From a virus, in IMG/VR virus record IMGVR_UViG_3300033996_001333, positions 3,389 to 67,388 of that record: DNA of 64,000 nucleotides, one strand, 5' to 3'. The notes beneath the pieces were generated by a model that saw only the letters and a list, made by a program, of their open reading frames with translations, made no database searches and was not told the origin of the DNA. How positions within the stretch are numbered: the first letter of the stretch is position 1; each line of letters begins with the position of its first letter. Position numbers and translations under genes: made by a program. This document shows positions 3,162-53,756 of this stretch, in pieces.

Positions 3162-3770
3162 ATGTCTTCCACCCCTCCAACAATCCTACAAGTTAAGTCC
3201 CTGCGAGAAAAGACCGGTGCGGGCCTGATTCTCTGCAAAGAAGCACTCATTTTTTCTGACAGTGATGAGGCCGGTGCGATCACGTGGCTGCGGCAGAAAG
3301 GAGTCGCCCTGGCTGACGGCAAGATCGGTCGGAGCGCACGAGAAGGTACTGTGGGCAGCTACATTCACACTGGCGGTAAGGTTGGAGTCCTTATCGAGGT
3401 CAACTGCGAAACGGACTTTGTGGCCAAGTCCGAACCCTTTCAGGAACTTGTTCGAAATCTTTCGATGCAAATTGCAGCGTGCCCCTCTGTGTGCCACGTT
3501 TCAATCTTTGATATCCCTGAGGAGACTCTCCTTGAGGAGACTCGGATTGAGTCCGGAAAGGCAGACCTTGCGAAGAAGCCCGAGGCAATTCGAAACAAGA
3601 TCGTTGAGGGTCGTGTGGCAAAGCGATTCAGAGAGCTGTCTCTCATGGACCAGCCCTACATCAAAGACAACTCAATGAGTATCGAAACATACGTGAAGAA
3701 CTTCGCTGCAATAGTTGGCGAAAACATCGTTGTGAAGCGATTCGTACGTTTTGTCCTCGGCAGCTCTTGA
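3162..3770 (+). CDS. tsf: translation elongation factor Ts (EF-Ts) homolog
   Basis: LREKTGAGLILCKEAL matches the EF-Ts N-terminal UBA-like motif (LRERTGAGMMDCKKAL). GKVGVLIEVNCETDFVAKSEPFQ matches the EF-Ts core (ILEVNCQTDFVAK). The C-terminus matches KPExI..KIVEGR...LSLLxQPFI. The track ORF 3093 has an N-terminal extension through the poly-C tract that is probably not translated. Confidence 0.8.
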   Translation: MSSTPPTILQVKSLREKTGAGLILCKEALIFSDSDEAGAITWLRQKGVALADGKIGRSAREGTVGSYIHTGGKVGVLIEVNCETDFVAKSEPFQELVRNLSMQIAACPSVCHVSIFDIPEETLLEETRIESGKADLAKKPEAIRNKIVEGRVAKRFRELSLMDQPYIKDNSMSIETYVKNFAAIVGENIVVKRFVRFVLGSS

Positions 3771-9779: not shown

Positions 9780-9868
9780 CCCTTGCCCATGGTGCGAGAC
9801 TCTAACCCTTACCTTGGGTCTTATATCCACCCAAGCAAGCCCGCTCAAACAAGAACCATACAAGGAAA

Positions 9869-10730
9869 AATGACAACTTTCGACAAATGCCTCGGAGCCT
9901 TTATTGGCCTTGCGATCGGTGACGCGATGGGTGCGCCAGTGGAGTTCTCTCCACCGGGGACCTTTGAGACCGTCACAGGTTACCGAGCAGGGGGGCCCTT
10001 TAATCTGCCGTCAGGCTACTGGACGGACGACACATCGCAGGCTGTTTGCCTTGCCGAGTCTTTTATTCATTGCAATGGGCAGATCAATCTTGGAGACCAA
10101 ATGCGTCGGTACTCCAACTGGTACGAGTACGGAAGGAACAGCTCAACAGGTGTCTGTTTTGACATCGGCAATGGAACACTTCGTGCAATTGAGACTTTTC
10201 TCGTTGAGGGGTCTTTGAGTCTCTATCCGGAGAATTCGAAAGGAAACGGGTCTTTGATGCGTTTATCCCCCGTTTCTATTGTGTACCACAAGTCAAGTGA
10301 GCAGGACGCTGTAGCAGCGTGTGACGCGTCATCATCAACAACCCATGGCCACTTGGCATCCGACCTATGCAAAGATCTCGGTCGTTTGCTGCACCAATAC
10401 TTAAATGGCACGGGGGGAAAACCTGAAGTCTCGCCGGAGGGAATTGAAAATTCCGGGTACGCACCGAAGTCCTTAAACGCCGCACTCTACCACTTTGGGT
10501 CAACTTCGTCCTTTGAAGAGGCCATCCTGCAGGCTGTGAACTACGGGGACGACTCAGACACGGTTGCTGCGATTACGGGGCAGCTAGCAGGTGCTTACTA
10601 CGGTTACAAGGCTATTCCTAAGCGATGGGTTTCGGGGTTGCACGACAGCGAAAGACTTTTGCTCATAGCGAGCACTTTGTACGACCTTTCGTTTGGGACG
10701 GTTTCCCCCCTTGTTTCTACTCTGAAATAA
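9869..10730 (+). CDS. ADP-ribosylglycohydrolase (ARH/DraG family)
   Basis: GAFIGLAIGDAMGAPVEF, YWTDDTSQ, GNGSLMRLSPV and YGDDSDTVAAITGQLAGAYYG are ARH family signatures. Start taken at MTTFDK. Confidence 0.75.
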
Positions 10731-10738
10731 CGTATAAT
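10695..10738 (+). promoter_or_regulatory. intergenic element copy 4
   Basis: GGGACGGTTTCCCCCCTTGTTTCTACTCTGAAATAACGTATAAT. Overlaps the 3' end of the ARH gene. Confidence 0.5.
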
Positions 10739-10766
10739 ACCCTTACTTAAGCTCTCGAAACCGCAA

Positions 10767-11138
10767 ATGCATTTCTACGCGATCACACGCCGCGACCTTG
10801 ACCCTGCTCAGCAAGCTATTCAGGCGGCTCACGCACAAGTCGAGTTTGCGAGAGTACACCCTGATTCTTTAGCCCAAGACCACCCACCTTTCGTATGGCT
10901 ATCGGCTGAGAACAAGTGGGAGCTTTTGCAACTCTCGTGTGTTCTTCGGAGTTACGGACTCTCGGTGGTAGAATTTCACGATCCGGACTACAAGGGGTTT
11001 GACCCCAGTGCCCTAGCGTGCCTGGTCGACGAAGACCACCGTTATTTGCTCTCTGAGTTCCCTTTATGGGTTCCGTTCAGGACGCAGTGGTATAACTTTT
11101 CGGTGCCCGACCGCTTGGTGAACCACGCGGAGGGGTAA
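10767..11138 (+). CDS. hypothetical protein
   Basis: 123 aa ORF between the ARH and ART-like genes. Confidence 0.45.
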   Translation: MHFYAITRRDLDPAQQAIQAAHAQVEFARVHPDSLAQDHPPFVWLSAENKWELLQLSCVLRSYGLSVVEFHDPDYKGFDPSALACLVDEDHRYLLSEFPLWVPFRTQWYNFSVPDRLVNHAEG

Positions 11139-11147
11139 AGTACCTTA

Positions 11148-12368
11148 GTGCTTAGTTCGGTTGTACGAATGTACGGAGAAATTTCCCCCGATACCCTAGC
11201 GTTAATACACGACTTCACACGTTGTGTGAAACCGGACGGCGGGGTGTATGGTACAGCAGGACAGTGCCGCAAGGGGGTGGAGTCCGCAAAGGAAACTCGC
11301 AGCATTCGAAGAGAATCTGTTCTCAAGAATGTCAAGATTTACGAAAAGAATGACCCTGACGCTCTAAACAAGAATCTAAGGACTCTTGAGAGGATGTTCT
11401 TATCAAAGCCAGGGTACCGCACACCTCTCACAGAGAGTGCCCTCACCGCAATGCGATACCTTCGCCTAAAGTCCCACTTGGAGAAGAAGGCAGAGCAAAC
11501 ACAACAAAAGGGAGCCCTTCAGGATCAATACGAAGAATTAGTGAGAAACTCACCGAAGTACACGCAAACACCAGGATCGAGCAAACCTTTACCGAAAGCC
11601 TCGGTTGAGAAAGAGGTTGAGCTTCTCGAAAAGGAACTTGAAGCACTGAAGAAAAGAGTCCGAGTAATAGGGGAGCCTACCGACGACGTGTCAAGAGAGA
11701 AGCTTTTACACCTGCAAAAGGAAGGTATGGAGCTCGGTCGAACACTTTCGAGTGCTCGCAAGGGCACCTTGTTACCGCCGATTCTCACTTCTGTGTACGA
11801 ACGGCAAGGGTTCAATGCTCGACCGGAGGTTGTTGCAACGCGATCGGGACTGGAATCAAGAAAGGATATAGCCAGGAACCCTGACGGAAGACCAATTGTA
11901 GCTTATCGCGGTATAAGTTCAAATGAGTTTTCATTGCAGTTCAAAGGTGGTGGTCCCGAAGGAGACAAGCATTTTCCTGGTGGCGGAATTTATGGGAATG
12001 GGAGCTATTCTGCTTCTGCCCCTTTGTCTGGCAAGGTTAAGCATGATAAGTGGGCTCAAGACACGGCGAAGGACTACACGGGTGAAAGTGGGGATAAGTC
12101 AATAAGGGTTTCAGCCTTTGCATTCCGGTCTGACGCTCTACTCGTACAGTTTGAGGGGGACGGGAAGCAGTTTAAGCAGTGGGAAGGAGAGACCCTGCAG
12201 AAAGCAAGAGAGATTACGGGGTACGACCATCACGATGTGGGGTCAGCCGCTGCATCTCTGGGAATACATGCGTATAGAGTTCCACAGACCGATGGCCAAG
12301 ACTTCTGGGTTGTACTTAATCGGGGAGCAATTATCGTCGCAAACGACCCCGAATTAACACCGGACTAA
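11148..12368 (+). CDS. putative ADP-ribosyltransferase (Alt/Mod-like R-S-ExE candidate)
   Basis: The C-terminal half has AYRG (Arg), GSYSAS (STS-like) and QWEGE (ExE-like). The N-terminal half is coiled-coil. Confidence 0.4.
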   Translation: MLSSVVRMYGEISPDTLALIHDFTRCVKPDGGVYGTAGQCRKGVESAKETRSIRRESVLKNVKIYEKNDPDALNKNLRTLERMFLSKPGYRTPLTESALTAMRYLRLKSHLEKKAEQTQQKGALQDQYEELVRNSPKYTQTPGSSKPLPKASVEKEVELLEKELEALKKRVRVIGEPTDDVSREKLLHLQKEGMELGRTLSSARKGTLLPPILTSVYERQGFNARPEVVATRSGLESRKDIARNPDGRPIVAYRGISSNEFSLQFKGGGPEGDKHFPGGGIYGNGSYSASAPLSGKVKHDKWAQDTAKDYTGESGDKSIRVSAFAFRSDALLVQFEGDGKQFKQWEGETLQKAREITGYDHHDVGSAAASLGIHAYRVPQTDGQDFWVVLNRGAIIVANDPELTPD

Positions 12369-16426: not shown

Positions 16427-16440
16427 TTTTACCCCGTGCG

Positions 16441-16488
16441 CGGCGGGAAACCGTCCTTTACCCTCGCCCCTAAACAAGCTATAGTAAG
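16441..16488 (+). promoter_or_regulatory. intergenic element copy 6 (GC hairpin in inverted orientation)
   Basis: CGGCGGGAAACCGTCC...CTAAACAAGCTATAGT. Confidence 0.45.
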
Positions 16489-16507
16489 CTCACACCGTAA
16501 AACAACA

Positions 16508-17449
16508 ATGCACGTGACCGAAACTAAAGAGTATCAGAAAACAGAGCCGATTGAGGTTTACTCGAATCGCGACGGACAAAACCTGTACAAGATTTCAAAG
16601 ACCTCCTTTACGTTCAGTGCCGGTGAAAGGCAGGTCCGGTTGCACGACACTCCAACAAATTCGACTGACATTATCGTAGACGCAGACATACACAGCGGAG
16701 AAAGTTTCGCAGAACTTCTTCTGACTCTGTCGGCCATCAAAGACCTTCCTGTGCTGCGAAGTCTACAATTGGACATCCCGTACTTACCTTATAGCCGCCA
16801 AGACCGCCAGTGCGCTGAAGGGGAAGCGTTTTCGCTAAGAACTTTTGTAAAAGCTCTCGCCCCTTATCTTAAGGGAGTGTGCGACCGGGTGTACACATGG
16901 GACGTGCACAGCCACGTTGCAAATGAGCTCTTTCGAACCGAAATCGGCTGCGAGTTCAACAACCTACAACCCCAACTGTTTCTCCAGAAGTTCAAAGACC
17001 GGGGGCAAGAGTTTAGTGCTGAGACAATTGTGATTGCTCCGGATAAAGGTGCAGTCGAAAGAGCAACCCTCGTACAACAAACACTGGGGCTCCACTCTGT
17101 AGTGTACGCTACGAAAGTTCGCAACCCTGAAGACGGGCAAATCCTAAGGACGGAAGTTCCAGAAGACGTCAGTTACAAGGGCAAAAACCTTCTGATTGTG
17201 GACGACATCTGCGATGGCGGTCGCACCTTTATCGAACTCGCCAAGGTGCTACGTCAGTTCGACCCGTCTCGAATTGACCTCTATGTAACTCACGGAATTT
17301 TCTCCAAGGGTTTTAAGGTGTTTGGGAGCTTAATCGACAACTTTTTCGTTGCGAACTTGCTCCCGTATAAAGCCTTTTACCAAGAGTTACCCTCGTACTT
17401 GACCTACCTTCGTACCGAAAACTACCCCACCCCACGCAACCAACCATGA
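16508..17449 (+). CDS. ribose-phosphate pyrophosphokinase homolog (Prs-like, or ADP-ribose pyrophosphokinase Adps-like)
   Basis: IPYLPYSRQDRQ matches MPYxGYARQDR. LIVDDICDGGRT is the PRPP-binding loop. Stop overlaps the next ATG. Confidence 0.75.
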   Translation: MHVTETKEYQKTEPIEVYSNRDGQNLYKISKTSFTFSAGERQVRLHDTPTNSTDIIVDADIHSGESFAELLLTLSAIKDLPVLRSLQLDIPYLPYSRQDRQCAEGEAFSLRTFVKALAPYLKGVCDRVYTWDVHSHVANELFRTEIGCEFNNLQPQLFLQKFKDRGQEFSAETIVIAPDKGAVERATLVQQTLGLHSVVYATKVRNPEDGQILRTEVPEDVSYKGKNLLIVDDICDGGRTFIELAKVLRQFDPSRIDLYVTHGIFSKGFKVFGSLIDNFFVANLLPYKAFYQELPSYLTYLRTENYPTPRNQP

Positions 17450-18960
17450 AAATTTTTGCGCCCCACGCAACCGACTTTTACAAGACAGGACACCCTTCGC
17501 AAAACCCTGAAGGCACCGAAGTAATCTACGCCAACATGACGGCAAGGTCCGACCGTCTGGCGAACATGCCCGCTGACTTCGACCACAAGATCGTCGTGGC
17601 CAACATCCAGGGGACAATGAAATGGATGCTGAGGGATCTTTGGAATGAGACCTTTTTTCAGCAACCCAAGGCCAAGGTGTTGGACAAATACAAGCGGCGA
17701 ATGGACTCCTCGCTCGGAGAAGGTGTTGTCGGCACTGACCACATTGCTGAGCTTCACGACCTGGGTTACATGCCGCTGCATGTGAAGGCACTACCCGAGG
17801 GCAGCCGTGTTAACATCGGAGTGCCGTTTCTGACGGCGCAAAACACACACAATGAGTTTAAGTGGCTGGCCCCGTGGTTAACCAACTATGTCGAAACCGC
17901 CAAGTCGTCTGAGCTGTGGAAGGCCATCAACGTGGCAACCATCGCCTACGAGTTTCGCCGTCTTCTCGACCACTACGCTGAAACCACAGGGAGTAATCCG
18001 CAGTTTGTTGACTTTCAGGGGCACGACTTCTCCGCTCGCGGAGTCGGAGGCATTCACGATGCCGCTGCGCACCAAATCGGCCACCTTTTTTCCTTCAAGG
18101 GCACGGACACAATCCTTTCCATTGATTATTTGGAGGATTACTACGATTGCGGTTCCAATTTCATTGGGGGTAGTATTCCCGCTACGGAACACAGTGTGAC
18201 CTGCCTTGGCGGTCAAAGAAACGAATTAGAGACAATTCGTCGAATTATTACAAAAGTATACCCAACTGGGCCGGTCAGTGTAGTTTTTGACACTTGGAAC
18301 TACTGGGATGCACTGACTGTTATTGCACCCGCACTTAAGGAAGACATCTTAAATCGTCGTCCGAATTCTCAGGGCATCGCTAAGGTCGTATTCCGTCCCG
18401 ACAGTGGTGACCCTGAGAAAATCATCTGCGGTGACGCTGACGCTGAGCCAGGTAGCCGAGAGTACAAAGGTTCGCTTGAGCTTTTATGGGAGGTCTTCGG
18501 AGGAACGGTAAACGAGAAGGGTTTCAAGGTACTGAACCCTCGAGTTGGCTTAATTTACGGCGACTCAATCACTCTTCCACGGGCCAGGGCCATCCTGGAG
18601 CACATGAGGCAGCTTGGGTGGGCGTCCGAAAACATCGTGTTCGGTATCGGTTCCTACACCTATCAATACCATACACGGGACACGTTCGGTATCGCATACA
18701 AAACGACCTGGGGGCAAATTAACGGTGTCGCCGTTGAAACTATGAAGGACCCCATTACGGATCGCGGCACGAAAAAGTCGGCGTTGGGTCTACTGCGAGT
18801 TGAAAAGGATGGGGAGAACTTTGTTCTTCATCAACAGCAGACTCGTGAGCAAGAGCAGCGAGGCGAGCTTCGCACCGTGTTCTTAAACAGCGTGGTTTAC
18901 GGGGAGGATGTAAACTCACTGCCTAACATTCGTACTCGACTTCTCAACCCCGCAGCTTAG
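17446..18960 (+). CDS. nicotinamide phosphoribosyltransferase homolog (Nampt/NadV-like, or Namat-like)
   Basis: 504 aa. N-terminal TDFYKTGH (compare the Nampt TDSYK motif), internal FKGTDT. ATGA overlap with the Prs-like gene. Confidence 0.7.
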   Translation: MKIFAPHATDFYKTGHPSQNPEGTEVIYANMTARSDRLANMPADFDHKIVVANIQGTMKWMLRDLWNETFFQQPKAKVLDKYKRRMDSSLGEGVVGTDHIAELHDLGYMPLHVKALPEGSRVNIGVPFLTAQNTHNEFKWLAPWLTNYVETAKSSELWKAINVATIAYEFRRLLDHYAETTGSNPQFVDFQGHDFSARGVGGIHDAAAHQIGHLFSFKGTDTILSIDYLEDYYDCGSNFIGGSIPATEHSVTCLGGQRNELETIRRIITKVYPTGPVSVVFDTWNYWDALTVIAPALKEDILNRRPNSQGIAKVVFRPDSGDPEKIICGDADAEPGSREYKGSLELLWEVFGGTVNEKGFKVLNPRVGLIYGDSITLPRARAILEHMRQLGWASENIVFGIGSYTYQYHTRDTFGIAYKTTWGQINGVAVETMKDPITDRGTKKSALGLLRVEKDGENFVLHQQQTREQEQRGELRTVFLNSVVYGEDVNSLPNIRTRLLNPAA

Positions 18961-23950: not shown

Positions 23951-24601
23951 GTGACCAAAGCACCCCAACCCATGAAGTCTCCCCCTGAATCAGTTACAGG
24001 AAAACTTTTGCTGAAGCCAGGGGACAGTGTGTTTGTTCCTGGAAAAATACTTAAAAATTCACCCGACGGTCGAACCTGGGGCACTGAAGTTCCTTACCTT
24101 CACTTTCGGAAGAGTCCAGTAAAAGACGGTCTCTACGTTGTGTCCGACATCTGGATGCACCCGAAAGCAACAGACCCGAACGTTCCATCCTCGTACTGCT
24201 ACACTCTGGTAAGAGTCCGTGAGGATCGAACCTGGACAAATGAACGGCGTAATCACAGAACACTAAGAAGCTGCTTCTCCCCGGAAGACATGTCAGAGAC
24301 AAAACTCCCGTACAACTGCCTCGACTGGGACCAGCTCCTTCGAGACCAAGTAGTTACGTCCTACGCGTACACCCCTGGTGAAAAGTTCGACATGGACGAG
24401 TTTAGAAAAGATCTGGGCCAAGTTCTTTACAAGCACAAGGTTACTCTGTCAGTAGACACGAAGTTCTCCGACGACTGGGACGAGCACGGCACAAACCACC
24501 TTGTTGTCCTCGCTAACGGGGAAATAAGGGGTGACCTTGGGTCTGACTTTCCAAAGCGGAGATCAGCGCCAGCCTGGGACAGTGGGAAACGAAATCGCTA
24601 G
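23951..24601 (+). CDS. hypothetical protein
   Basis: 216 aa ORF upstream of the RNA ligase. Confidence 0.5.
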   Translation: MTKAPQPMKSPPESVTGKLLLKPGDSVFVPGKILKNSPDGRTWGTEVPYLHFRKSPVKDGLYVVSDIWMHPKATDPNVPSSYCYTLVRVREDRTWTNERRNHRTLRSCFSPEDMSETKLPYNCLDWDQLLRDQVVTSYAYTPGEKFDMDEFRKDLGQVLYKHKVTLSVDTKFSDDWDEHGTNHLVVLANGEIRGDLGSDFPKRRSAPAWDSGKRNR

Positions 24602-24656
24602 TCCCAACCTTGCCCAGATAAACAAAACTCAACGGTCCCACCCACCTAAAGCTGTC

Positions 24657-25769
24657 ATGGAACCTTTAAACCTGCGCCACTTTCTAATCGACTGGTTAAA
24701 CTACCGGGTCGAGACTGCTTTTGAAGCACTTGCCGAGCACGACATTCGTGTTGCTCGCGACGAACGTTACCCTGCTCTTTTTAACTTGAAGTATGGCAGT
24801 GTAATGGCGGACAAGTCACTACCGATTGTTCGTGCCTGCCGTGGTGCCGTAGTCGAACTTGTTGACGATGGCACGGGCTCCCCGTACTTTCGGCTGGTTG
24901 CGTACGCCTTCGACCGCTTTTTCAACGTTGGCGAGGGGTATGCCGCTGAGATTGATTGGTCCACTGCCCGTGTAGCTGAGAAGTATGACGGGTCTCTGAT
25001 CAAGTTGTTCAACTATAAAGGAGAGTGGTTGGTATCAACATCGGGTTCAGTCGCTGGTTCTTCGGAAGTCGGGACCACGGGTCGCTCCTTCTCCGAGTTG
25101 TTTTGGCACGTTTTTAACGAAGTTGGATATGACCGGGCTGACCTCGACCCTTATTTTGTCTACGTCTACGAGTTGTGCCACAAAGACAACAAAATTGTTG
25201 TAGACTACGAGACTCCCTTACTACCTCTTCTGGCTGTTCGAAGCCGCTTTGACGATCTAAACGAAGTGGATCTCAAGCATTTTGAAAACCGCTTCAACAT
25301 CGCTCAGACCTACGACCTGCGCTCACATGAAGCTGTAACGCAGTTTGTAAACGACTCCTCTCGTGGTACCGCTGAAGGCGTAATTATTGTCGACGGAAAC
25401 GGAAACCGCCAGAAAGACAAGTCCAACGTCTATTGTCAGTTGCACAGGGTTAAAGGAAACGGCGAACCGGATTTCTCCGAGCTTTTCCTGAACGACGACT
25501 TGGAAGAGTTTCTGCTTCACTTTCCCGAGTATCGTGGGGGTTTTGACGTTCACCTGCGTTCCATCGAAGTGATGGAGAGTGCGGTGAGCGAGAACATGAG
25601 GGCTCACAACCATCTTAACCAGAAGGATTTCGCTCAAGCCGTACTTGCCGAGTCAAAAGAACTTTCTGGAGCATGCTTTGCGATTCGATCCGGCAAAGTC
25701 GGATCCTTTGCAGAGTGGCTCGAAGGTTTAACCCCGAAAAAGCTCGACGTTTTGCTCGGAATTTCCTGA
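24657..25769 (+). CDS. RNA ligase, T4 Rnl1-like
   Basis: AEKYDGSLIKLF is nucleotidyltransferase motif I (KxDG), like T4 Rnl1 KEDGSL. 370 aa taken from the internal ATG (MEPLNL). Confidence 0.65.
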   Translation: MEPLNLRHFLIDWLNYRVETAFEALAEHDIRVARDERYPALFNLKYGSVMADKSLPIVRACRGAVVELVDDGTGSPYFRLVAYAFDRFFNVGEGYAAEIDWSTARVAEKYDGSLIKLFNYKGEWLVSTSGSVAGSSEVGTTGRSFSELFWHVFNEVGYDRADLDPYFVYVYELCHKDNKIVVDYETPLLPLLAVRSRFDDLNEVDLKHFENRFNIAQTYDLRSHEAVTQFVNDSSRGTAEGVIIVDGNGNRQKDKSNVYCQLHRVKGNGEPDFSELFLNDDLEEFLLHFPEYRGGFDVHLRSIEVMESAVSENMRAHNHLNQKDFAQAVLAESKELSGACFAIRSGKVGSFAEWLEGLTPKKLDVLLGIS

Positions 25770-28469: not shown

Positions 28470-28697
28470 ATGACAATTGATGAAACGAACCTTCTTTATG
28501 CAAAGGCAAAACTACGAAAAGACGGTGTTTACTCTTTTCATGGGAATTACTGGGCAGTCAAAGACAGACAGTTTGTCGCCTTTATGGACCTCGCAGGAGT
28601 GTGCTATCAAAGGTTTAGTTCATTTAACGTTTTAATTGCACATTTTGAGTCTTACGGTCGAAGAAAGAAATTAAGGGAGTGGTTGCTCTCCCAATAG
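28470..28697 (+). CDS. hypothetical protein
   Basis: 75 aa ORF. Confidence 0.4.
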   Translation: MTIDETNLLYAKAKLRKDGVYSFHGNYWAVKDRQFVAFMDLAGVCYQRFSSFNVLIAHFESYGRRKKLREWLLSQ

Positions 28698-28726
28698 CCC
28701 ATTCAGTCTCACCTTTACCACAAAAC

Positions 28727-29749
28727 ATGACCACTTCAACATCGGCTCCTAACATTCGCACTGCTCTAGTTAGGCTAATCGAGGTGGCTGAAGCCACAGC
28801 TGACTCCTTCAACATCGGCTTAATGAATGACGCCATTGATGCAGCTACCGCTGCACTAAATGCCGAGCCGAGTGAGAATGTGCCAATTCCAGACCATGCG
28901 AGCATGCTCGCTTTCGCATGTGGCCGTGAGCCCTGGGCAACATGGCTGAAATCTGGAGGCTCCCTGGAATCGGCTCACCTTGAGCTGTCTGATCTGATGC
29001 TGGCTGTTCTTGCCCGATGGGGCCAATCCACCCCGCCAGCGCCGGAGCCGGGGGAGGTGGCGGGGGTTGCGGAATGGATGAACAAGCGTGGACAGACGGC
29101 AGACCTAGGAGTAAAGGATTGGTATTTCCGCTCTGCCACCCTGCTCCAGCAGCAGGCTGCCGAGCTGGCTGCCCTGCGGATTGCGCATGAGGCGGATCAA
29201 GGGAAAGTGGAAGAGACTGTCGATGCCTTGGTAAAAGCTGAGGCCACCTTGACAGATGTAGTTGAGGGAGAGTCCCCCGTTGATTGCGGTCCCAGCAATG
29301 ATCATAATTATTTTGCCGAACAATGTGGTCACCTTGAAGCAGGTCTTGAAAAATGTGAAGAACTCCTGGAAAGTATACGGTCAGTGATCAAGAGACATGA
29401 AATCGGAAAGCATAGCCCATCAAACGGCTTAGAGTCAGTATCAGTATCCGAGCGGCTGCCAGGAAGAGAGGATTGTGATAATGAGGGACGCTGCTGGTGG
29501 TTGATGCAACCCCTTGCGGCTACGGCTTCACCGTCCTGGGTGTTTGGTTTATCTTCCATTAAAGATGATCAGGGTGGAGTATTTTTCCAAACCCACTGGC
29601 TCCCCCACGATGCCATTCCTCTACCTCAGAATGTGGGAGTGCTATCTTCAGATGGCGGATATGAAGCGGGAAATATGTGGGTGGGCCACACTCGCCCCAA
29701 CAGTGACGCCAGTGGGGTTGAGCAAGCAGCTACCAGGGGAGAAGGATGA
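28727..29749 (+). CDS. hypothetical protein
   Basis: Internal ATG (MTTSTSAPNIRTAL). About 340 aa. Confidence 0.5.
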   Translation: MTTSTSAPNIRTALVRLIEVAEATADSFNIGLMNDAIDAATAALNAEPSENVPIPDHASMLAFACGREPWATWLKSGGSLESAHLELSDLMLAVLARWGQSTPPAPEPGEVAGVAEWMNKRGQTADLGVKDWYFRSATLLQQQAAELAALRIAHEADQGKVEETVDALVKAEATLTDVVEGESPVDCGPSNDHNYFAEQCGHLEAGLEKCEELLESIRSVIKRHEIGKHSPSNGLESVSVSERLPGREDCDNEGRCWWLMQPLAATASPSWVFGLSSIKDDQGGVFFQTHWLPHDAIPLPQNVGVLSSDGGYEAGNMWVGHTRPNSDASGVEQAATRGEG

Positions 29750-30396
29750 GGGAGTCTAATTTCCACCGGAAACACCTTGTTTCTAAGGACTTTTCGGGGT
29801 CCGATATGCCTTACAGCACTTTCTTCGGGTCCAAACTCTGGCGTGTTGATTTCAGCTTCACTGACTTAACTGGTGCTGACTTTAGGCACTCCCTCATTCG
29901 CCGTTGCAACTTTAATGGTGCTATACTCAAAGGTGCTTTGTTTGATGGGTGTAGATTCGGGGCACTCAAATCTTCTTTTGTGGGTACCACCCTACCCCAC
30001 CTTGGGGGTATTCCAGTCCAGGGGGCATTTCATGCTTATACGATAGCCGACTCTGGCTTGATTAGACTTGTTGTCCCTGCAGACGCCAGACGAGGGGTTA
30101 GTCTTCAGGGGTGTAAGTGGGTGTCTCATGCAAGAGTTTGCGAAGGCTCCGGAAGGTGCTGGGGTGTCGTTCACAGAGGGGTGTACAAAAGAGCAAAGTA
30201 TATTAAGGGGGAAGTTTCATCCCCTGGGTGGAATATAGTCGTCTTCCTAACCAGGGGTGAAGCACTTGACGCTTTGGAGGAAGCCGCACGATTCAGTGTG
30301 CTGAAGCCTTACCCGTTGGATTTTGAAGGGAGCTACGGGGACTGGGAGAGCAGAAGGCGGCTTCCCCTACTTGCCTCCGTGGATCAAACGAGCTAA
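29746..30396 (+). CDS. hypothetical protein with pentapeptide-repeat-like segment
   Basis: FSFTDLTGADFRHSLIRRCNFNGAILKGALFDGCRFG. ATGA overlap with the upstream gene. Confidence 0.45.
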   Translation: MRESNFHRKHLVSKDFSGSDMPYSTFFGSKLWRVDFSFTDLTGADFRHSLIRRCNFNGAILKGALFDGCRFGALKSSFVGTTLPHLGGIPVQGAFHAYTIADSGLIRLVVPADARRGVSLQGCKWVSHARVCEGSGRCWGVVHRGVYKRAKYIKGEVSSPGWNIVVFLTRGEALDALEEAARFSVLKPYPLDFEGSYGDWESRRRLPLLASVDQTS

Positions 30397-33455: not shown

Positions 33456-33917
33456 ATGACTCTTACGGCACAAGCGGTCCGGCATGCCCAGGCAATCGCG
33501 TTAGACACCAACCCTGGCCTTCCCGCCTTACCTTTCATTCCTGCTACTTGGCTCCCGTCCGACGGCCTTTCTCCTGATCAGCAGGAGGCTAACCTGCTAC
33601 ATGTGGCCTTGTGGGTGGTCGAACGCGATTTGCACAACTTTGATATGGATCAGTGGCACGCCGCCTGGGTTCACTTGTTTGGTGTAGCTCGCAGGGGCTC
33701 CCTGCACATGCTCAACGCATGTGGAACTATCCACTGCATCGCCGGTTTCAGCCAGTTGATGGCGGGTCAGATGGGGTTTGAGCTCACCCCCTGTCTCGCT
33801 GGGACTCGATTGCTTGGTGCAGAAGCCGCATGCCACTTTCGGGACAGCAACGAAGATGGCCTTGCATTCCTTAAAGAGGTGATTGCTCGTAACTCCGCCA
33901 CGTCATTTTCACTATGA
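33456..33917 (+). CDS. paralog A of the LPxLPHIP/CGTVHC family (unknown function)
   Basis: LPALPFIPATW...EANLLHVALWVVERD...CGTIHCIAGFSQLMAG...FLKEVIARNS. One of four paralogs. Confidence 0.55.
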   Translation: MTLTAQAVRHAQAIALDTNPGLPALPFIPATWLPSDGLSPDQQEANLLHVALWVVERDLHNFDMDQWHAAWVHLFGVARRGSLHMLNACGTIHCIAGFSQLMAGQMGFELTPCLAGTRLLGAEAACHFRDSNEDGLAFLKEVIARNSATSFSL

Positions 33918-34363
33918 ACACGATTCTCACCAGGCTTGCCGTTGATTCTATTCGTCACGCCCTGGCCTTGAACACCGGCCCCGGCATTCCACGGCTACCA
34001 CACATTCCAAACAACCTGCTGACGGACATTCTGTTCCCGAAACAGCGGGAGGAAAATCTTTTATTCCTTTCCCTGTGGGTGATTGAGAGAGACTCACATA
34101 ATCTTGAAATGAGTACTTGGCATGCGGATGCCAAGACAGGCTACACAGGAGTCGTAACCCTTCAAAACTGTGGCGAGGTCCATTGCATTTCGGGATTCGC
34201 ACAAGTTATGTGTGGTGAAAAGGGCTTCTTCATGTACCCTGGATTTGTTGGTCGCTTGCTACTTGGGGACGAAGCAGGCACGCACTTCACTGACAGCAAC
34301 GCCGACGCACTTTGCTTCCTTCGCCGAGTTATTTCACGTAATTCCCCTGGTGCTAGTGCTTGA
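33914..34363 (+). CDS. paralog B of the LPxLPHIP/CGTVHC family
   Basis: IPRLPHIPNNL...ENLLFLSLWVIERD...CGEVHCISGFAQVMCG...FLRRVISRNS. ATGA overlap with paralog A. Confidence 0.55.
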   Translation: MNTILTRLAVDSIRHALALNTGPGIPRLPHIPNNLLTDILFPKQREENLLFLSLWVIERDSHNLEMSTWHADAKTGYTGVVTLQNCGEVHCISGFAQVMCGEKGFFMYPGFVGRLLLGDEAGTHFTDSNADALCFLRRVISRNSPGASA

Positions 34364-34370
34364 AACAAGA

Positions 34371-34673
34371 ATGGAAACCGAAAACCTAAACCTGCGGTCT
34401 TTGTGCCGCAAGCAACAAATTGCACTTGCAGTGTTGCGGTCAATGTGCAATTCACAGACGGGCCACCTAGTACTTGAGAATTGGGAGCCAACACTCGACG
34501 ATCTCGACCGCCGTGTGGATGCAGCACTGGCTGAGGTCCCTGCCCCAGGAGACAACTTTCCTGAGAAAACCGGCTTCTTTCGCAAGGCGAAGAATGCAGT
34601 TTTCGACTTTCTGTGCGGCTTCAATCTCCATGACAATGGTGATTGCTACAGGGCAACAACCCACCCACGTTAA
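34371..34673 (+). CDS. hypothetical protein
   Basis: Internal ATG (METENLNLRSL) of track ORF 34170. Confidence 0.4.
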   Translation: METENLNLRSLCRKQQIALAVLRSMCNSQTGHLVLENWEPTLDDLDRRVDAALAEVPAPGDNFPEKTGFFRKAKNAVFDFLCGFNLHDNGDCYRATTHPR

Positions 34674-34737
34674 ACTACGGGTGTAAACTACGACCCGTGA
34701 GACCCTGCTCACTTAAAAACAACGAACCTTAAACAAA

Positions 34738-35148
34738 ATGACTACCTCTACCGAAACACGTCCGAGCACTCAGGCAAGTTCACTAACCATCCCTAGTCTC
34801 CCGCACATTCCAGAAAGTTGGGACATTGTGCTTTCCCCTGAACAACAAGGAGAGAACTTACGGCACGTTGCACTCTGGATTGTGGAGCGTGACTTGGATA
34901 ACTTCAATATGTTTGCGTACCACCTGAATGGGGACTACACCAATTACTGGGAGGGAATAAACACCAGTAACTGCGGTACGGTTCACTGCATCGGAGGTTT
35001 CTCACAAGTTATGTGTGGAGAACTGGGCTTCACTGTCCACCCTCGGATTGCAGGAAACAGGCTGTTAGGAGAAGAGGCCGAAAGCCACTTCTCGGACACC
35101 ACTGAAGACGGTCTTGCTTTCCTTCGGGAAGTGATCGCTCGCGGTTAG
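34738..35148 (+). CDS. paralog C of the LPxLPHIP/CGTVHC family
   Basis: IPSLPHIPESW...ENLRHVALWIVERD...CGTVHCIGGFSQVMCG...FLREVIARG. Confidence 0.55.
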   Translation: MTTSTETRPSTQASSLTIPSLPHIPESWDIVLSPEQQGENLRHVALWIVERDLDNFNMFAYHLNGDYTNYWEGINTSNCGTVHCIGGFSQVMCGELGFTVHPRIAGNRLLGEEAESHFSDTTEDGLAFLREVIARG

Positions 35149-36907: not shown

Positions 36908-37123
36908 ACCTTCGACCCTCAAGCAGAAGCACGCTCAATGCTGCTTTGTTGGGAAAAGTACTACGTTATTCCACCTAACACTAAAACACTTCGAGATTGC
37001 GCTGAGCATGGCGCTACACACTGCGCCTACGGCTGGCCAAAGTTTCCGGACCCCAGATGGAACAGTGAGCAGATCGAAGCGTATCTTGCTGCCTACTGCT
37101 CTGCCCCGCATAGTCCGTGCTGA
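36905..37123 (+). CDS. hypothetical protein (duplicated N-terminus M-T/A-F-x-PQAEA)
   Basis: The first ~25 codons are near-identical in DNA to the gene at 37217. Confidence 0.45.
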   Translation: MTFDPQAEARSMLLCWEKYYVIPPNTKTLRDCAEHGATHCAYGWPKFPDPRWNSEQIEAYLAAYCSAPHSPC

Positions 37124-37148
37124 GGCACACCCACCGATCCCTTTCTTT

Positions 37149-37219
37149 GGGGCGGTTTACCCCCTTTCTTTCTCGAAGAGAAAGCGGTATAGTTACTTCA
37201 GTCCACGCACGCAACCATG
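37149..37219 (+). promoter_or_regulatory. intergenic element copy 17 plus conserved leader
   Basis: GGGGCGGTTTACCCCCTTTCTTTCTCGAAGAGAAAGCGGTATAGTTACTTCAGTCCACGCACGCAACCATG. Confidence 0.55.
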
Positions 37220-37492
37220 GCCTTCCACCCTCAAGCAGAAGCCGATCTCGAAGCACTTTGGCTGGGGCTTCCCGAAGAAACCCGAAGCAAGGTTGAGAAG
37301 ATGCCCGCAGGTTTGCGAGATTCTTTTCTGAAGTTGGCCCACTCCTATGCACTTTCCGCCTACGAACTTGGATCTCGGCGATCCAGGCAAGACTGCCACC
37401 GGGCTATTTTACTTGTGGCTGAGAAGGTGCATCCCGACAGCAACTTGGAAAGTTTTCTGGAGCCTGACTACGGAATGGTGCCCCGTGCGTAG
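37217..37492 (+). CDS. hypothetical protein (duplicated N-terminus)
   Basis: MAFHPQAEADLEAL. Shares promoter, leader and start with the gene at 36905. Confidence 0.45.
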   Translation: MAFHPQAEADLEALWLGLPEETRSKVEKMPAGLRDSFLKLAHSYALSAYELGSRRSRQDCHRAILLVAEKVHPDSNLESFLEPDYGMVPRA

Positions 37493-39159: not shown

Positions 39160-40281
39160 ATGGCAAACATCGAACGCAAACTCGCCTCCGTCCGACAAGT
39201 AACGGAGATTCGCCCAATCCCGGACGCCGACGCAATTGAGTGCGCCATCGTGGGAGGTGGCTGGCCCGTTGTCGTGAAGAAGGGGGAGTTCCAAGCTGGC
39301 GATCTTGCAATCTACTTCGAGATTGACTCGTGGATCCCCCACGGGCTTGCCCCGTTCTTGTCAAAGGGGAAGGAACCAAGGGAGTACAATGGAGTGAAGG
39401 GGGAAAGGTTGAAAACCGTCCGGCTCCGTGGCCAAGTCTCTCAGGGTCTCCTACTTCGCTTCTCGGACATCTCTCCAAGCTTCTACGTTGTTTCGCTAGC
39501 TGAACCTTATGGGGGGAGGGGATCTCTCCGAGTTGATGAGTGTGTGTGGGAAGAAGGCGAAGATTTCACTCTAGAGTTTGGCATTCAGAAATGGGAGGCC
39601 ACGGTCCCCGCTTGCCTTGCCGGACAAGTGCGTGGAAACTTCCCGAGTTTTTTGGTTAAGAGTGACCAAGAGAGATGTCAAAATATCGTGAGAAAAATCT
39701 TCGAGGAGCACAAGGAGGAAACCTACGAAGTATCCTTGAAGCTGGACGGGTCTTCCTGCACCATTTATGCCCGAGACGGGGACAGTGGCGTGTGTAGCCG
39801 CAACCTAGACCTTAAGGAAACAGAAGGAAACAGCTTCTGGAAGGCTGCTCGAGAACAAGGTGTAATCGACGCCTTGCTGTCCTATAATAAGGAAACCGGT
39901 CGCAACATTGCTCTTCAGATGGAGCTGTGCGGTGAAGGAATTCAAGGAAACCAAGAAGGAATCAAAGGACAACGGCTTTTTCTTTTTGACGTCTTCGACA
40001 TCGACACTCAGACCTACATGAAGCCGGGGCAGCGACTTGTTTTCCTTGACGAGGTTTTGACTGAGCTTGGGGCCAAGTTGGAACACACTCCCATTATTGA
40101 CCTTCGAACTTACGTTGCCGGACGATTCGCCAACCTTGACGAGCTACTTGCTTATGCAGATGGTCCGTCTATGAACCCAAAAGTCAAGCGTGAAGGTGTG
40201 GTGTTCAAATCGTACGACTCCGCGTTCTCCTTCAAGGCCATTAGCAACGAGTGGTTGCTGTGGAAAGGGAAGAAAGGGTGA
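39160..40281 (+). CDS. RNA ligase, DraRnl/DRB0094-like (Rnl5 family)
   Basis: N-terminal KLASVRQVTEIRPIPDADAIECAIVGGGWPVVVKKGEFQAGDLAIYFEIDSWIP resembles the DRB0094-family N-domain. Motif I candidate VSLKLDGSS (KxDG). Confidence 0.55.
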   Translation: MANIERKLASVRQVTEIRPIPDADAIECAIVGGGWPVVVKKGEFQAGDLAIYFEIDSWIPHGLAPFLSKGKEPREYNGVKGERLKTVRLRGQVSQGLLLRFSDISPSFYVVSLAEPYGGRGSLRVDECVWEEGEDFTLEFGIQKWEATVPACLAGQVRGNFPSFLVKSDQERCQNIVRKIFEEHKEETYEVSLKLDGSSCTIYARDGDSGVCSRNLDLKETEGNSFWKAAREQGVIDALLSYNKETGRNIALQMELCGEGIQGNQEGIKGQRLFLFDVFDIDTQTYMKPGQRLVFLDEVLTELGAKLEHTPIIDLRTYVAGRFANLDELLAYADGPSMNPKVKREGVVFKSYDSAFSFKAISNEWLLWKGKKG

Positions 40282-44204: not shown

Positions 44205-44360
44205 ATGGAAACCGTCACGATTTCAAAAACCGAATACGAAAGATTAGTTGAAGGGCAACTTGAACTCAACGCTCTTCATCAATTTGGGGTTGATAACTGG
44301 TGTTGGTACGATGACGCCGTTAGTTCAATTCAAGAAGAAGAAGAAAATGATGAGCCCTAG
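44205..44360 (+). CDS. small acidic protein (51 aa)
   Basis: METVTISKTEYERLVEGQLELNALHQFGVDNWCWYDD... Confidence 0.3.
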   Translation: METVTISKTEYERLVEGQLELNALHQFGVDNWCWYDDAVSSIQEEEENDEP

Positions 44361-46648: not shown

Positions 46649-48133
46649 ATGACAACGCCATCCTTTTTAAACGCACTCGAAAACGAGTTTAACCAAACCA
46701 TCACCGCTAACGGTGCAAAGGCATACAAGTCCACCGAGTCTAAGTGCCTGGACCTCTTTGGAAAGATTGCAGCTTGCCGTGACAACATCAGCGAAGCAAC
46801 TCGCCTATTCAATCTTGCTTATGCCGAAAACCCTGAGACCGCAACTCGAATCCTGTTTTGGGCACGCGACATTCGTGGGGGCCAGGGAGAGCGAAAGATC
46901 TTTCGAGAAGTTTTTAAGGAACTCGTCCTCAATGACGCTGCAATTGGTGCCAGGCTAGTTAGCCTGATTCCACAGTACGGTCGCTGGGATGATGTGGTAG
47001 CCCTCGACGGTACCTTAGTTTGGGGCATCGCACTCGAAGCAATTAAGGCACAACTGAACGCCGACCTAAATACGGAAGTTGGAAAGTCAGTGTCACTTCT
47101 GGCAAAGTGGCTGCCTTCCATTAACGCTTCCAGCCAGGACTCTAAGAGGATTGGCCGAAAAATTGCCGAAGCAATGGGTTGGACCGAGAGACAGTACCGC
47201 AAGGCACTGACTGCCCTCAGGACCCAAGTCAAAATTGTTGAGCAGCCAATGTGTGCTCGTGAGTGGGAAAGCATTGACTATAGCAAGTTGCCTTCTCGGG
47301 CCGGCTTTATGTACCGTAAAGCTTTCGTCAAGCGCGACGGCAACCGCTACCAATCCTACCTTGACTCGGTAGAAAAAGGTGAGGCAAAAATCAATGCCGG
47401 TACGATCTACCCTTACGAGATCGTGCACAAGTACCTTTACGGGGGCGATAGGAGTGATCAAACCTTAAACTTAATGTGGGAAGCTCTACCCAACTACATG
47501 GAAGGAGAGCAGCTGAACGGCCTGGTAATTGCCGACGTCTCAGGATCAATGGGAAACAACGGCGGCATGCCCATGGCGGTTTCAATCTCGCTGGCGATGT
47601 ACATCGCTGAGCGTAACACCGGGGCATGGAAGGATAAGTTCCTAACCTTCTCCGGAAGTCCGCAGTTGCAGTCGGTTACAGGGAGAAACGTTGCTGAGCG
47701 TGTTAGTAACCTTAGTCGGGCCGACTGGGGTGCGAATACAGACCTGCAAGCAGTCTTCAATCTTGTGTTGGCTACCGCAACGAGGAACCATATTCCTGAG
47801 GGGGAAATGCCGCGCAAGCTCATCATTGTCTCAGACATGCAGTTTGATTCCTGCTGCAGAAACAACTCAGTGACAAACTTTGAGGCGGTGCGAATCAAGT
47901 ATGCTCAAGCAGGGTATTCCTTGCCGGAACTTGTCTTCTGGAATGTTAGCTCTAGCGGCAACGTACCTATGAAAATGCATGATACGGGGACTTGCCTGGT
48001 CTCCGGATGCAGCCCTTCAATCCTGAAAGCTGTGCTTACTGGCGGGGTAATTACGCCTGTAGGGGTTATGCGTGACGCTGTTTACACTGAAAGGTACGAC
48101 GCTGTCGGTGCCGTATTTGCTGAAGGAGCATGA
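46649..48133 (+). CDS. vWA/MIDAS protein with N-terminal helical TROVE/DUF2828-like region (Ro60-like architecture)
   Basis: C-terminal LVIADVSGSMGNNGGMPMAVSISLAMYIAE carries the vWA MIDAS motif DxSGS. The helical N-terminal 300 aa and the 494-aa size fit DUF2828/Ro60-like proteins. Confidence 0.5.
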   Translation: MTTPSFLNALENEFNQTITANGAKAYKSTESKCLDLFGKIAACRDNISEATRLFNLAYAENPETATRILFWARDIRGGQGERKIFREVFKELVLNDAAIGARLVSLIPQYGRWDDVVALDGTLVWGIALEAIKAQLNADLNTEVGKSVSLLAKWLPSINASSQDSKRIGRKIAEAMGWTERQYRKALTALRTQVKIVEQPMCAREWESIDYSKLPSRAGFMYRKAFVKRDGNRYQSYLDSVEKGEAKINAGTIYPYEIVHKYLYGGDRSDQTLNLMWEALPNYMEGEQLNGLVIADVSGSMGNNGGMPMAVSISLAMYIAERNTGAWKDKFLTFSGSPQLQSVTGRNVAERVSNLSRADWGANTDLQAVFNLVLATATRNHIPEGEMPRKLIIVSDMQFDSCCRNNSVTNFEAVRIKYAQAGYSLPELVFWNVSSSGNVPMKMHDTGTCLVSGCSPSILKAVLTGGVITPVGVMRDAVYTERYDAVGAVFAEGA

Positions 48134-51289: not shown

Positions 51290-51379
51290 ACCGTTTTCCT
51301 CGGGCGGTTTACCCCCCTTTCCTTTCCGACAGGAAAGCGGTATAGTTATTTCAGTCCAAGCAACCCCTCACAAACCATG
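51285..51379 (+). promoter_or_regulatory. intergenic element copy 25 plus conserved leader
   Basis: GGTAAACCGTTTTCCTCGGGCGGTTTACCCCCCTTTCCTTTCCGACAGGAAAGCGGTATAGTTATTTCAGTCCAAGCAACCCCTCACAAACCATG. Confidence 0.55.
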
Positions 51380-52204
51380 CCCGCTTTCGCCATCACCAAC
51401 GACCTTAACTGGTCCGTCTCCCCAAGGCCCACGGCATCGCTTAACTCCCAGGGAGTCTGGGTTGCGGATCCAGACCGCAAAGCGATACACCGGGACGACA
51501 CCGACGAACGCCTCGGATATGTTTCCACCGGGTACGAGGTGGTGCAAAATGCCCAGCTTCTCCAGATGATCAACCCTATGGTTGAAGAGGGGCTTCTGGT
51601 AGTGGAAAACATGGGATACTTGGCTCACGGGGCCAAGGTGTTTGCCCAGGCGAAAATCAACCAGGAGTTTCGTGTAGTTGGCGAGGACTACAACGCCTAC
51701 ATTACTCTTCTGAATGGGCACACGGGAAACGCCTCCGTGGCCATCGGTCCGGTTGCCACTCGCGTAATTTGCGGCAACACTTTTTCGATGGCTTACTCTA
51801 ACATCGGAGAAAAATTCCGCCACTCTTCCGGAGTGAACGAGCGGGTTTTGGCGAGCACCGCAGTTCTTGACTACGTTAACGGGGCGATGAAGAAGTACTC
51901 CGAGAGCGTTGAAACCATCGCAAGTGCAACTTGCACTTCAACCCAATTCCGTGCCTTCCTTGAGGCAACTTACAAGAAAGAAGCGGACAAAATGCGCAAT
52001 GTCAACGTTCTCAACGACCTGTTTTACAATGGGGCGGGAAACGAAGGGCGTACCTTTTACGATGCCATGAATGCGGTTACGGACTTTAGTTCCAATCGTA
52101 GTCGAAAGAGCGAGACCGGACGCTTCGGTTACGCAAACTTCGGTCAAGGCGCAACCATCAACCAGCGGGCCATGGAAGTAGCCCTTGAAATGGCTACTGT
52201 CTAA
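51377..52204 (+). CDS. DUF932-like phage/plasmid protein
   Basis: 275 aa. Overall pattern (...YVSTGYEVVQN...GAKVFAQAKINQEF...) recalls the DUF932/TIGR03299 family. Low certainty. Confidence 0.4.
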   Translation: MPAFAITNDLNWSVSPRPTASLNSQGVWVADPDRKAIHRDDTDERLGYVSTGYEVVQNAQLLQMINPMVEEGLLVVENMGYLAHGAKVFAQAKINQEFRVVGEDYNAYITLLNGHTGNASVAIGPVATRVICGNTFSMAYSNIGEKFRHSSGVNERVLASTAVLDYVNGAMKKYSESVETIASATCTSTQFRAFLEATYKKEADKMRNVNVLNDLFYNGAGNEGRTFYDAMNAVTDFSSNRSRKSETGRFGYANFGQGATINQRAMEVALEMATV

Positions 52205-52909: not shown

Positions 52910-53461
52910 ATGACCTCAGCAACTTGCACCGAAGCACTGACGCCAGCTGAAGCCACTCGGGTTGCTCACCGGATGTGCACATCACAAGGGCTCCCTCCGC
53001 TCCCGCATATCCCGGCGAATTTCCTACTCGCCCTTGACGCCTTAGAGGAGTGCACGTACAGAAACGTAGAAGACTTGGGAGGGTTGACACCCGAACAACA
53101 GGAAGCCAATCTCCTCCATGTCGCACTATGGATTGTTGAGCGCGACCGGAAAAACCTCCACATGGAGAGGTGGCACAAGCTCTGGTTTGACATTTCCCCA
53201 ACAACTTACGAAGACTGGTGCTTCTACGAGGAACCTTCGAACGAAGCCGGTTTTCACACGTGCGGGACCGTCCACTGTCTGGCGGGCTTCGCGCAGGTTA
53301 TGGGGGGGATTGGTGCTTTTGCTCTCACACCTGACGAAGCGGGAGAGGTGCTTCTCGGATCGAATGCAGCAGGCCACTTCTTCGACACTGACGAACAAGC
53401 ACTTGTTTTCCTGGAACAAGTTATTGAACGTAATTCCCATTCAGTACCCCCCACTGAGTAG
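52910..53461 (+). CDS. paralog D of the LPxLPHIP/CGTVHC family
   Basis: LPPLPHIPANF...EANLLHVALWIVERD...CGTVHCLAGFAQVMGG...FLEQVIERNS. A fourth copy 18 kb from the A-C cluster. Confidence 0.55.
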   Translation: MTSATCTEALTPAEATRVAHRMCTSQGLPPLPHIPANFLLALDALEECTYRNVEDLGGLTPEQQEANLLHVALWIVERDRKNLHMERWHKLWFDISPTTYEDWCFYEEPSNEAGFHTCGTVHCLAGFAQVMGGIGAFALTPDEAGEVLLGSNAAGHFFDTDEQALVFLEQVIERNSHSVPPTE

Positions 53462-53462
53462 T

Positions 53463-53756
53463 ATGAAAATCACGTATAACGCACCGTCGAAAGTTGAACG
53501 CACCGTCAAACTTAACGAGTCCGATTTCCCGCCCCTTTATGGCGCGATCCGAGACTGTTTCCTGCAGAGACTTAAATCTTTCGGCTTGTCCAACCCGTTC
53601 TTCCCCTTTGAGTACGAAGCGATCGAGTTCTGTCGCACGGCGGGAGTTGATACGACTAATCGCATAGACGTGGTCGAATTCTTTGAGACGCTTCTTTTGA
53701 GGGGAACCCCGGAAGTTTCAAACATTTCGGAGGAAGATGAAAACGGCAATCACTAG
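53463..53756 (+). CDS. hypothetical protein
   Basis: Internal ATG (MKITYNAPSK). Confidence 0.4.
   Translation: MKITYNAPSKVERTVKLNESDFPPLYGAIRDCFLQRLKSFGLSNPFFPFEYEAIEFCRTAGVDTTNRIDVVEFFETLLLRGTPEVSNISEEDENGNH

Follow-up and report, generated by a model that had tools for sequence, protein, structure and literature searches.

Pentapeptide repeat proteins (PRPs) of the Qnr, MfpA and AlbG type are DNA mimics, and those of the Qnr and MfpA type carry C-terminal dimerisation helices (PMC10886550). The PRPs of Ralstonia phages RsoP1IDN (gene 4), RpY1 and RSK1, which are annotated for their repeat part only, end in a further domain of the pattern W-H...CGTxHC.AGW...LLG.EA..HF that no solved PRP possesses. 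Stand-alone versions occur as hypothetical proteins in Synechococcus phage B23, with matches also in B3, and three automatic PHROG clusters (phrog_889, phrog_30739 and phrog_31265) match the domain as well; they are labelled 'unknown function' and have neither description nor structure. Here we analyse four paralogous genes carrying this module in a 64,000 nt stretch of a large uncultured phage (IMG/VR record IMGVR_UViG_3300033996_001333, positions 3,389 to 67,388; hereafter the window). Judged from sequence, the window form is a stand-alone, four-copy variant of the uncharacterised module, distinguished by an N-terminal PxLPxIP box. The family is already catalogued, but only as clusters of unknown function and, in fusion form, as 'pentapeptide repeat protein'.

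All four genes are on the + strand, and a check of the open reading frames (ORFs) upheld the positions given in a preliminary description of this DNA. Copy 1 (33456–33917; 153 aa), recognised by the family hidden Markov model (HMM), carries the box LPALPFIP at 33519–33542. Its core (33645–33737) consists of MDQWH (containing H68), a variable loop of 20 residues that is modelled with low confidence, and CGTIHC (C89, H93 and C94), together a putative metal site. Copy 2 (33914–34363; 149 aa) has the box IPRLPHIP (33986–34009), MSTWH (34109–34123) and CGEVHC (34169–34186), and copy 3 (34738–35148; 136 aa) has IPSLPHIP (34789–34812), MFAYH (34909–34923) and CGTVHC (34972–34989). The distal copy 4 (52910–53461; 183 aa) has a net charge of about −18, the box LPPLPHIP (52991–53014) and a core (53162–53278) of MERWH, a 28-residue variable loop and CGTVHC, with additional insertions in the loop and downstream of the box.

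The ATG at 33456 is nested in a longer ORF beginning with TTG, and was taken as the start of copy 1, a position that agrees both with the HMM alignment and with gene calls on sibling contigs. The first three copies had been described as a tandem array. Copies 1 and 2 do overlap, the stop of one and the start of the other sharing the sequence ATGA, a pattern typical of translational coupling, but an unrelated 100 aa ORF (34371–34673) separates copy 3 from copy 2. Scans for promoters and terminators around this trio returned background levels. A 212 aa ORF (53118–53756) extends into copy 4 in a different frame. Of this ORF, probably just the 3′ part (from about 53470, MKITYN...) represents a genuine small gene; homologs of that part are conserved beside the copy 4 position in distant phages.

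In a MAFFT alignment of the four copies, copies 2, 3 and 4 are 49–52% identical to copy 1, within the 40–60% estimated earlier by eye, and 45 invariant columns are distributed over the full length. A family HMM run against the six-frame translation of the window found exactly four copies (E 1e-55 to 1e-61) and no fifth, the next best match having an E-value of 0.5. The whole-length spread of invariant columns, together with the HMM E-values, indicates that the paralogy is genuine and due neither to low complexity, which had been proposed as a refuting check, nor to chance. The shared motifs are the (L/I)PxLP(H/F)IP box, NLLHVALW(V/I)VERD, CG(T/E)(V/I)HC and LLG.(E/N)A..HF.D...L.FL..VI.R. The near-invariant CGT core claimed previously needs widening, since copy 2 reads CGEVHCISGF, and the C-terminal motif is present without its supposed RNS ending in copy 3, which finishes ...VIARG and lacks the final NS.

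Searches of Pfam, NCBIfam and PADLOC gave nothing significant for the four copies, in line with the earlier statement that the family was not recognised. Profile searches reached much further. The four-copy profile found 126 proteins, all unannotated, and an exhaustive search of 1.84 billion representatives returned 386 at E 1e-3 or better. Distant members mostly match over the C-terminal ~100 residues only, often at the C-terminus of proteins of 170–340 aa, and an alignment of the module alone (A4) recovers 380 proteins. The window copies belong to this phage superfamily by a significant profile match over the core of helix, M..WH, loop and CGTxHC.AG. When 33 diverse modules were compared with PHROGs, 30 matched phrog_889 (best E 2.3e-11), 19 phrog_30739 (1.5e-07) and 16 phrog_31265 (7e-13); the window subfamily itself matches these clusters weakly and over the core only, as in copy 4 against phrog_889 (E 1.3e-5, spanning W-H to CGTxHC). 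The source names for eight clusters are 'hypothetical protein' or absent.

The same 33 modules showed no recurring family in a permissive Pfam scan (E up to 10). None of the PADLOC-DB defence HMMs matched the four copies or five distant relatives, except for a marginal Cas3c hit to the N-terminal region of protein P0203 (E 0.0024). No match was obtained for copy 4 by tblastn against cultured phages and plasmids, for protein P0135 by tblastn against phages, or for window positions 30–38 kb by megablast against phages, and a literature search turned up no publication on the module or on what phage PRPs do.

The preliminary description overlooked the link to fusion proteins: the family represents, in stand-alone form, a module that many small phages carry joined to pentapeptide-repeat solenoids. 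Pfam Pentapeptide repeats lie N-terminal to the module in 45 of 67 distant members. Among 309 retrieved proteins, 114 are stand-alone with an N-terminal PxLPxxP box (the window type), 78 combine a PRP with the module, 49 have some other N-terminal extension, 39 are bare modules and 26 are fragments. Further scaffolds are decapeptide repeats and a repeat of ~19 residues in sphingomonad prophage-like loci. The Ralstonia phage fusions share with the window copies the module and a phage early or accessory setting; the window copies differ in being multi-copy and in having the PxLPxIP box in place of pentapeptide repeats. They are not PRPs themselves, which consist of tandem A(D/N)LxX pentads that form a right-handed quadrilateral beta-helix: none matches the Pfam pentapeptide families (PF00805, PF13599, PF13576) at E up to 1, their model is all-alpha, and a periodicity scan detected repeats only in a separate gene (29746–30396) and in none of the four copies.

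An AlphaFold2 model of copy 1, built from a 76-sequence alignment, is all-alpha and confident (predicted local distance difference test 81.8, predicted template modelling score 0.78). Residues 76–88, just N-terminal of CGTIHC, are the sole low-confidence internal segment, and C94 directly precedes a helix (95–102). A Foldseek comparison of the model with BFVD, one of the checks suggested at the outset, gave no match at E 1e-3 or better. Profiles A2 and A4 had no match among PDB sequences even at E 10; the fold therefore has no solved relative, and none among the structurally characterised anti-defence proteins that the searched copy of the PDB contains.

In an alignment of 311 domains, conservation is highest at M64, W67, H68, C89, T91, H93, C94, A96, G97, G116 and F128. 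The loop that connects H68 to C89 has a hypervariable length throughout the superfamily. The Cys/His pair noted previously in the four genes is thus part of the most conserved feature of a much larger group. The tetrad H68/C89/H93/C94 reads HCHC in 261 of the 272 domains that cover all four positions, and is intact in all four window copies. H93 is substituted in four domains; each also has a substitution at H68 and keeps both cysteines, and the surrounding alignment is unambiguous. The replacement pairs (H68/H93) are E/R, able to form a salt bridge, K/Y and K/F (cation-pi) and F/A (a large and a small hydrophobic residue). From this covariation we infer direct contact between positions 68 and 93, and a probably structural role for the tetrad, most simply as a metal site. 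Conservation and covariation together would be consistent with the generic zinc-binding arrangement of four ligands on one ion. ZAS anti-sigma domains are all-alpha with an H-x3-C-x2-C motif, and AhpD/CMD-type helical proteins carry C-x-x-C in the AhpD fold; the window copies fit neither. Site variation accompanies tandem duplication outside jumbo phages too, as seen on a Halieaceae metagenome-assembled genome (MAG) contig (L008, 1234–2375), where two tandem module genes carry an E/R variant of the His pair in one and T/H in the other.

The reading that we favour, at a probability of roughly one in three, is that the four genes encode metal-stapled, helical target-binding modules that belong to an accessory repertoire for host takeover and counter-defence, their specificity being tuned by the variable loop and the N-terminal segment. 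The products would be soluble, acidic proteins of small size and all-alpha fold, based on a phage-specific domain whose core is M-x-x-W-H, a loop of variable length and C-G-T-x-H-C-x-A-G. In such a protein H68, C89, H93 and C94 (copy 1 numbering) would hold a structural metal ion, most likely zinc, that pins the W-H helix to the beginning of the helix after it and so displays the loop between them. The domain would then act as a target-binding or inhibitor module, and paralogs differing in loop and N-terminal segment would between them address several targets or variants of a target. Many small phages have the module fused behind a pentapeptide-repeat solenoid of the DNA-mimic type, which makes a host enzyme that handles DNA, or a defence complex, the probable target. 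Other contents of the window appear to fit such a role, namely a NARP1-like Adps/Namat pair, an ADP-ribosylglycohydrolase and RNA-repair ligases. For the host-range or anti-defence function suggested earlier, the evidence is contextual. Metal binding, the binding function and the nature of the target are likewise what we infer. In a broader version, which is possible but which we hold only tentatively, the W-H/CGTxHC module would be an undescribed metal-binding fold and a new, widespread class of host-takeover or anti-defence effector, acting on a host DNA-processing or immune complex either alone, in the multi-copy, loop-diversified arrays of large phages, or, in small phages, as the effector part of fusions with a DNA-mimic solenoid.

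Several observations weigh against a metal-stapled binding module. Adjacent residues such as H93 and C94 seldom both ligate one ion, and the Cys pair may have a separate role, as both cysteines are retained where the His pair is lost. No homology to a known anti-defence or defence protein was found with PDB profiles, PADLOC-DB or Foldseek against BFVD, and early expression is suggested by gene position only. The window encodes its own stand-alone PRP, a basic protein (pI 9.5) that near-identical siblings lack, so a PRP cannot be an obligatory partner. Sibling contig L015 has a frameshift in copy 3, of which the stretches examined of L032 and L033 showed a C-terminal fragment only. Lastly, copy 4 has a ratio of nonsynonymous to synonymous substitution rates (dN/dS) near 1, with changes of both kinds clustered in its loop, which fits relaxed constraint or a recombination tract no less than diversifying selection.

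The conserved cysteines could instead belong to an enzyme, in which a nucleophilic C94 at a helix N-terminus, together with one or both histidines, would form a thiol-dependent hydrolase, transferase or redox centre. Such an enzyme would modify a host protein or nucleic acid, with targeting left to the solenoid or the PxLPxIP segment. We consider both the activity and this division of labour unlikely. With its length of just about 100 aa, the domain is entirely helical, lacks any further invariant acidic or polar residue and has no fold relative among known thiol enzymes. In addition, the His pair is replaced by salt-bridge, cation-pi and hydrophobic pairs in proteins that keep the other conserved positions and both cysteines, a pattern not expected of a catalytic histidine.

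The fusion architectures raise the rather improbable alternative of a capping or dimerisation domain for beta-solenoid proteins, whose stand-alone copies would heterodimerise with, or regulate, solenoids of phage or host. The module is always C-terminal to the repeats, the site occupied by dimerisation helices in Qnr/MfpA-type proteins (PMC10886550), and it follows three different repeat types. In some siblings a PRP gene lies 3.5 kb upstream of the trio, and phage B23 interleaves PRP genes with module genes. On the other hand, of the 309 members retrieved 114 stand alone, near-identical phages have the trio without a PRP, and a pure oligomerisation domain leaves both the invariant His/Cys tetrad and the hypervariable loop unexplained. 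The PRP of the window (29746–30396) belongs to a cassette (28679–30396) in which it follows, with a 4 bp overlap, an ORF of 340–356 aa of unknown function; among otherwise near-identical siblings the cassette is present in L001, L003, L006, L015 and L016 and absent from L002, L004, L005 and L014. The possibility that the module itself mimics DNA is not supported, its acidity being unremarkable against the window background, copy 4 excepted.

In the 243 kb Synechococcus phage B23 (Kyanoviridae), a region of 40 kb contains no fewer than five stand-alone copies (gp204, gp222/gp223 and gp239/gp240), of which gp222 and gp223 are adjacent with a 4 bp overlap. These copies resemble those of the window in being stand-alone, multi-copy and partly tandem. 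The two families align by hhalign with a probability of 97.5% (E 8e-12), but over about 56 core columns only: the B23 proteins have a different N-terminal region without a PxLPxIP box, and their C-terminal half is too diverged to align (LS.Y..PFF compared with LLG.EA..HF).

A tree of copies from all phage loci places copy 4 in a separate clade and copies 1 and 2 as sisters, with copy 3 a deep lineage. Each type has its own orthologs in other phages, which bears out the earlier suggestion of an old expansion. Copy number is subject to turnover. Copies 1 and 2, each with 100% identity in one sibling phage, are lost differentially, type 1 standing alone in one sibling and type 2 alone in another. 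Copy 3 is likewise 100% identical in one sibling; in L015 (IMG/VR 3300044625_001067, a 277 kb sibling) its ortholog is split between two frames at 10733–11273. Half-length copy 3 products of 86–88 aa (P0119, P0120) recur on many contigs, P0119 on 22, and represent either a recurrent pseudogene or a tolerated split gene.

Orthologs of copy 4 in closely related phages are 91–93% identical. Its syntenic slot, downstream of a DUF932 gene, is filled by a family member in three distant jumbo phages, by a tandem pair in one of them. The DUF932 protein (51377–52204; L041 4785–5612; L017 8474–9298; L021 8039–8866) is 65–81% identical among these phages, and its gene lies 0.7–1.4 kb upstream of the slot. 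The slot occupants are 46–52% identical to copy 4, against backbone medians of 52–73%, and rank 5th of 23, 2nd of 14 and 3rd of 10 from the bottom, placing them among the more diverged genes without being the most diverged.

The description of the family as fast-evolving is upheld only in part. Copies 1 and 2, with dN/dS of 0.31 and 0.41, are under purifying selection. Five orthologs of copy 4 gave values of 0.91–1.19, compared with 0.15 for its pooled neighbours (individually 0.03–0.5, plus three higher values of 0.66–1.73), an excess over the pooled neighbours with Fisher p-values of 8e-4 to 2e-5 from non-independent comparisons. The substitutions are concentrated in loop residues 95–107, but so are synonymous changes; diversifying selection is therefore no more plausible than relaxed constraint or a small mosaic tract, and clean positive selection in this loop is not claimed. 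Another ORF with high pairwise values (37008–37331, + strand; 1.73 and 1.15 against two siblings) is covered almost entirely by an opposite-strand ORF (37014–37352, − strand), and its coding frame or strand may be mis-assigned.

These patterns bear on a further alternative, that the genes are near-neutral, dispensable paralogs left over from duplication in a hyperplastic region and without a specific current role. The frameshifted copy 3 of L015, the C-terminal fragment that alone was seen in the stretches examined of L032 and L033, the differential loss of copies 1 and 2 and the dN/dS near 1 of copy 4 would agree with it. It is nonetheless very unlikely, given the constraint on copies 1 and 2, the motif residues, which do not vary among the four copies or over several hundred homologs, and the retention of the copy 4 slot in phages whose backbone genes are only 52–73% identical. 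A small metal-dependent protein that binds nucleic acid or modulates transcription, and so reprograms host or phage gene expression, is a similarly remote prospect.

All inspected contexts of the module are phage or prophage. They include a 36 kb contig with Prim-Pol/VapE, SSB, PDDEXK and Dam genes around it, a MAG contig with DUF3799/PDDEXK beside it and a 32 kb contig with terminase and RusA genes. In the T7-like Ralstonia phage RsoP1IDN the fusion is gene 4, upstream of the primase, and it is found also in RpY1, RSK1 and relatives. The inspected loci showed no partner gene conserved in the neighbourhood, and a conserved downstream partner was rejected because the translationally coupled ORFs that follow distant members are mutually unrelated.

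Essentially all long ORFs of the window, and all that can be annotated, are on one strand. Their products include RlaP, a PRPS-like and NAMPT/NAPRTase-like pair, ADP-ribosylglycohydrolase, Rnl1- and Rnl2-type RNA ligases, DUF2828/DUF7788 and DUF932 proteins, an endolysin-like protein, an HNH endonuclease, a DprA-like protein and an exonuclease. The four genes recur, in identical or near-identical form, on metagenomic and IMG/VR viral contigs of 47–277 kb. From the gene content and these viral contigs the element is a large uncultured phage, as first proposed; the IMG/VR contigs of 190–280 kb agree. No close cultured relative was found. The best match of the NAMPT-like protein (59%) is to an Acinetobacter phage record, which is uninformative on the host, and the only cyanobacterial links are the distant copies in Synechococcus phages B23/B3 and a Kyanoviridae domain in the neighbourhood of one relative.

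The overlapping PRPP-synthetase-like and NAPRTase/NAMPT-like genes (16436–17449 and 17446–18960) have the layout of NARP1, a phage NAD+ reconstitution pathway comprising Adps and Namat (PMC12774641; bioRxiv 10.1101/2024.02.11.579819). The ADP-ribosylglycohydrolase gene is at 9783–10730. Genes of RNA-repair type are concentrated at 4655–5797, 24531–25769, 39160–40281 and 46649–48133 (RlaP nucleotidyltransferase, Rnl1-like and Rnl2-like ligases, and DUF2828/DUF7788), which suggests a counter-measure to host defences that cleave tRNA or other RNA. The Rnl2-type ligase at 39160–40281 (PHA02142 OB-fold plus RNA_ligase) is 99% identical to that of L016 and 65% and 48% identical to those of two other siblings, while its flanking genes are about 90% identical to siblings; it looks like an allele replacement in a mosaic region. 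A 51 aa gene on L001 (20292–20447, corresponding to about 44205–44360 of the window) has a precomputed assignment to Pfam Phage_T7_Gp5_9, a RecBCD-inhibitor family, and is possibly another counter-defence gene in the region.

Four anonymous ORFs have thus become a defined, testable domain with members in hundreds of phage protein clusters; its carriers range from T7-like podophages of 40 kb to jumbo phages of 280 kb and include a cultured cyanophage. The module has an invariant His/Cys site, yet no Pfam entry, solved structure or literature was found for it. Its repeated fusion to pentapeptide repeats offers a first clue to function, for the module itself as well as for the many phage 'pentapeptide repeat proteins' of unknown role. 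The existence of a four-copy family is in itself unsurprising, and the result would be modest if the module were merely a structural cap, but the family is a well-defined and widespread target for experiment. Should the module turn out to be an inhibitor or effector fold of a new kind, it would enlarge the counter-defence and host-takeover repertoire of phages by one class, and would explain why a multi-copy family of this kind recurs in the hyperplastic regions of large phages.
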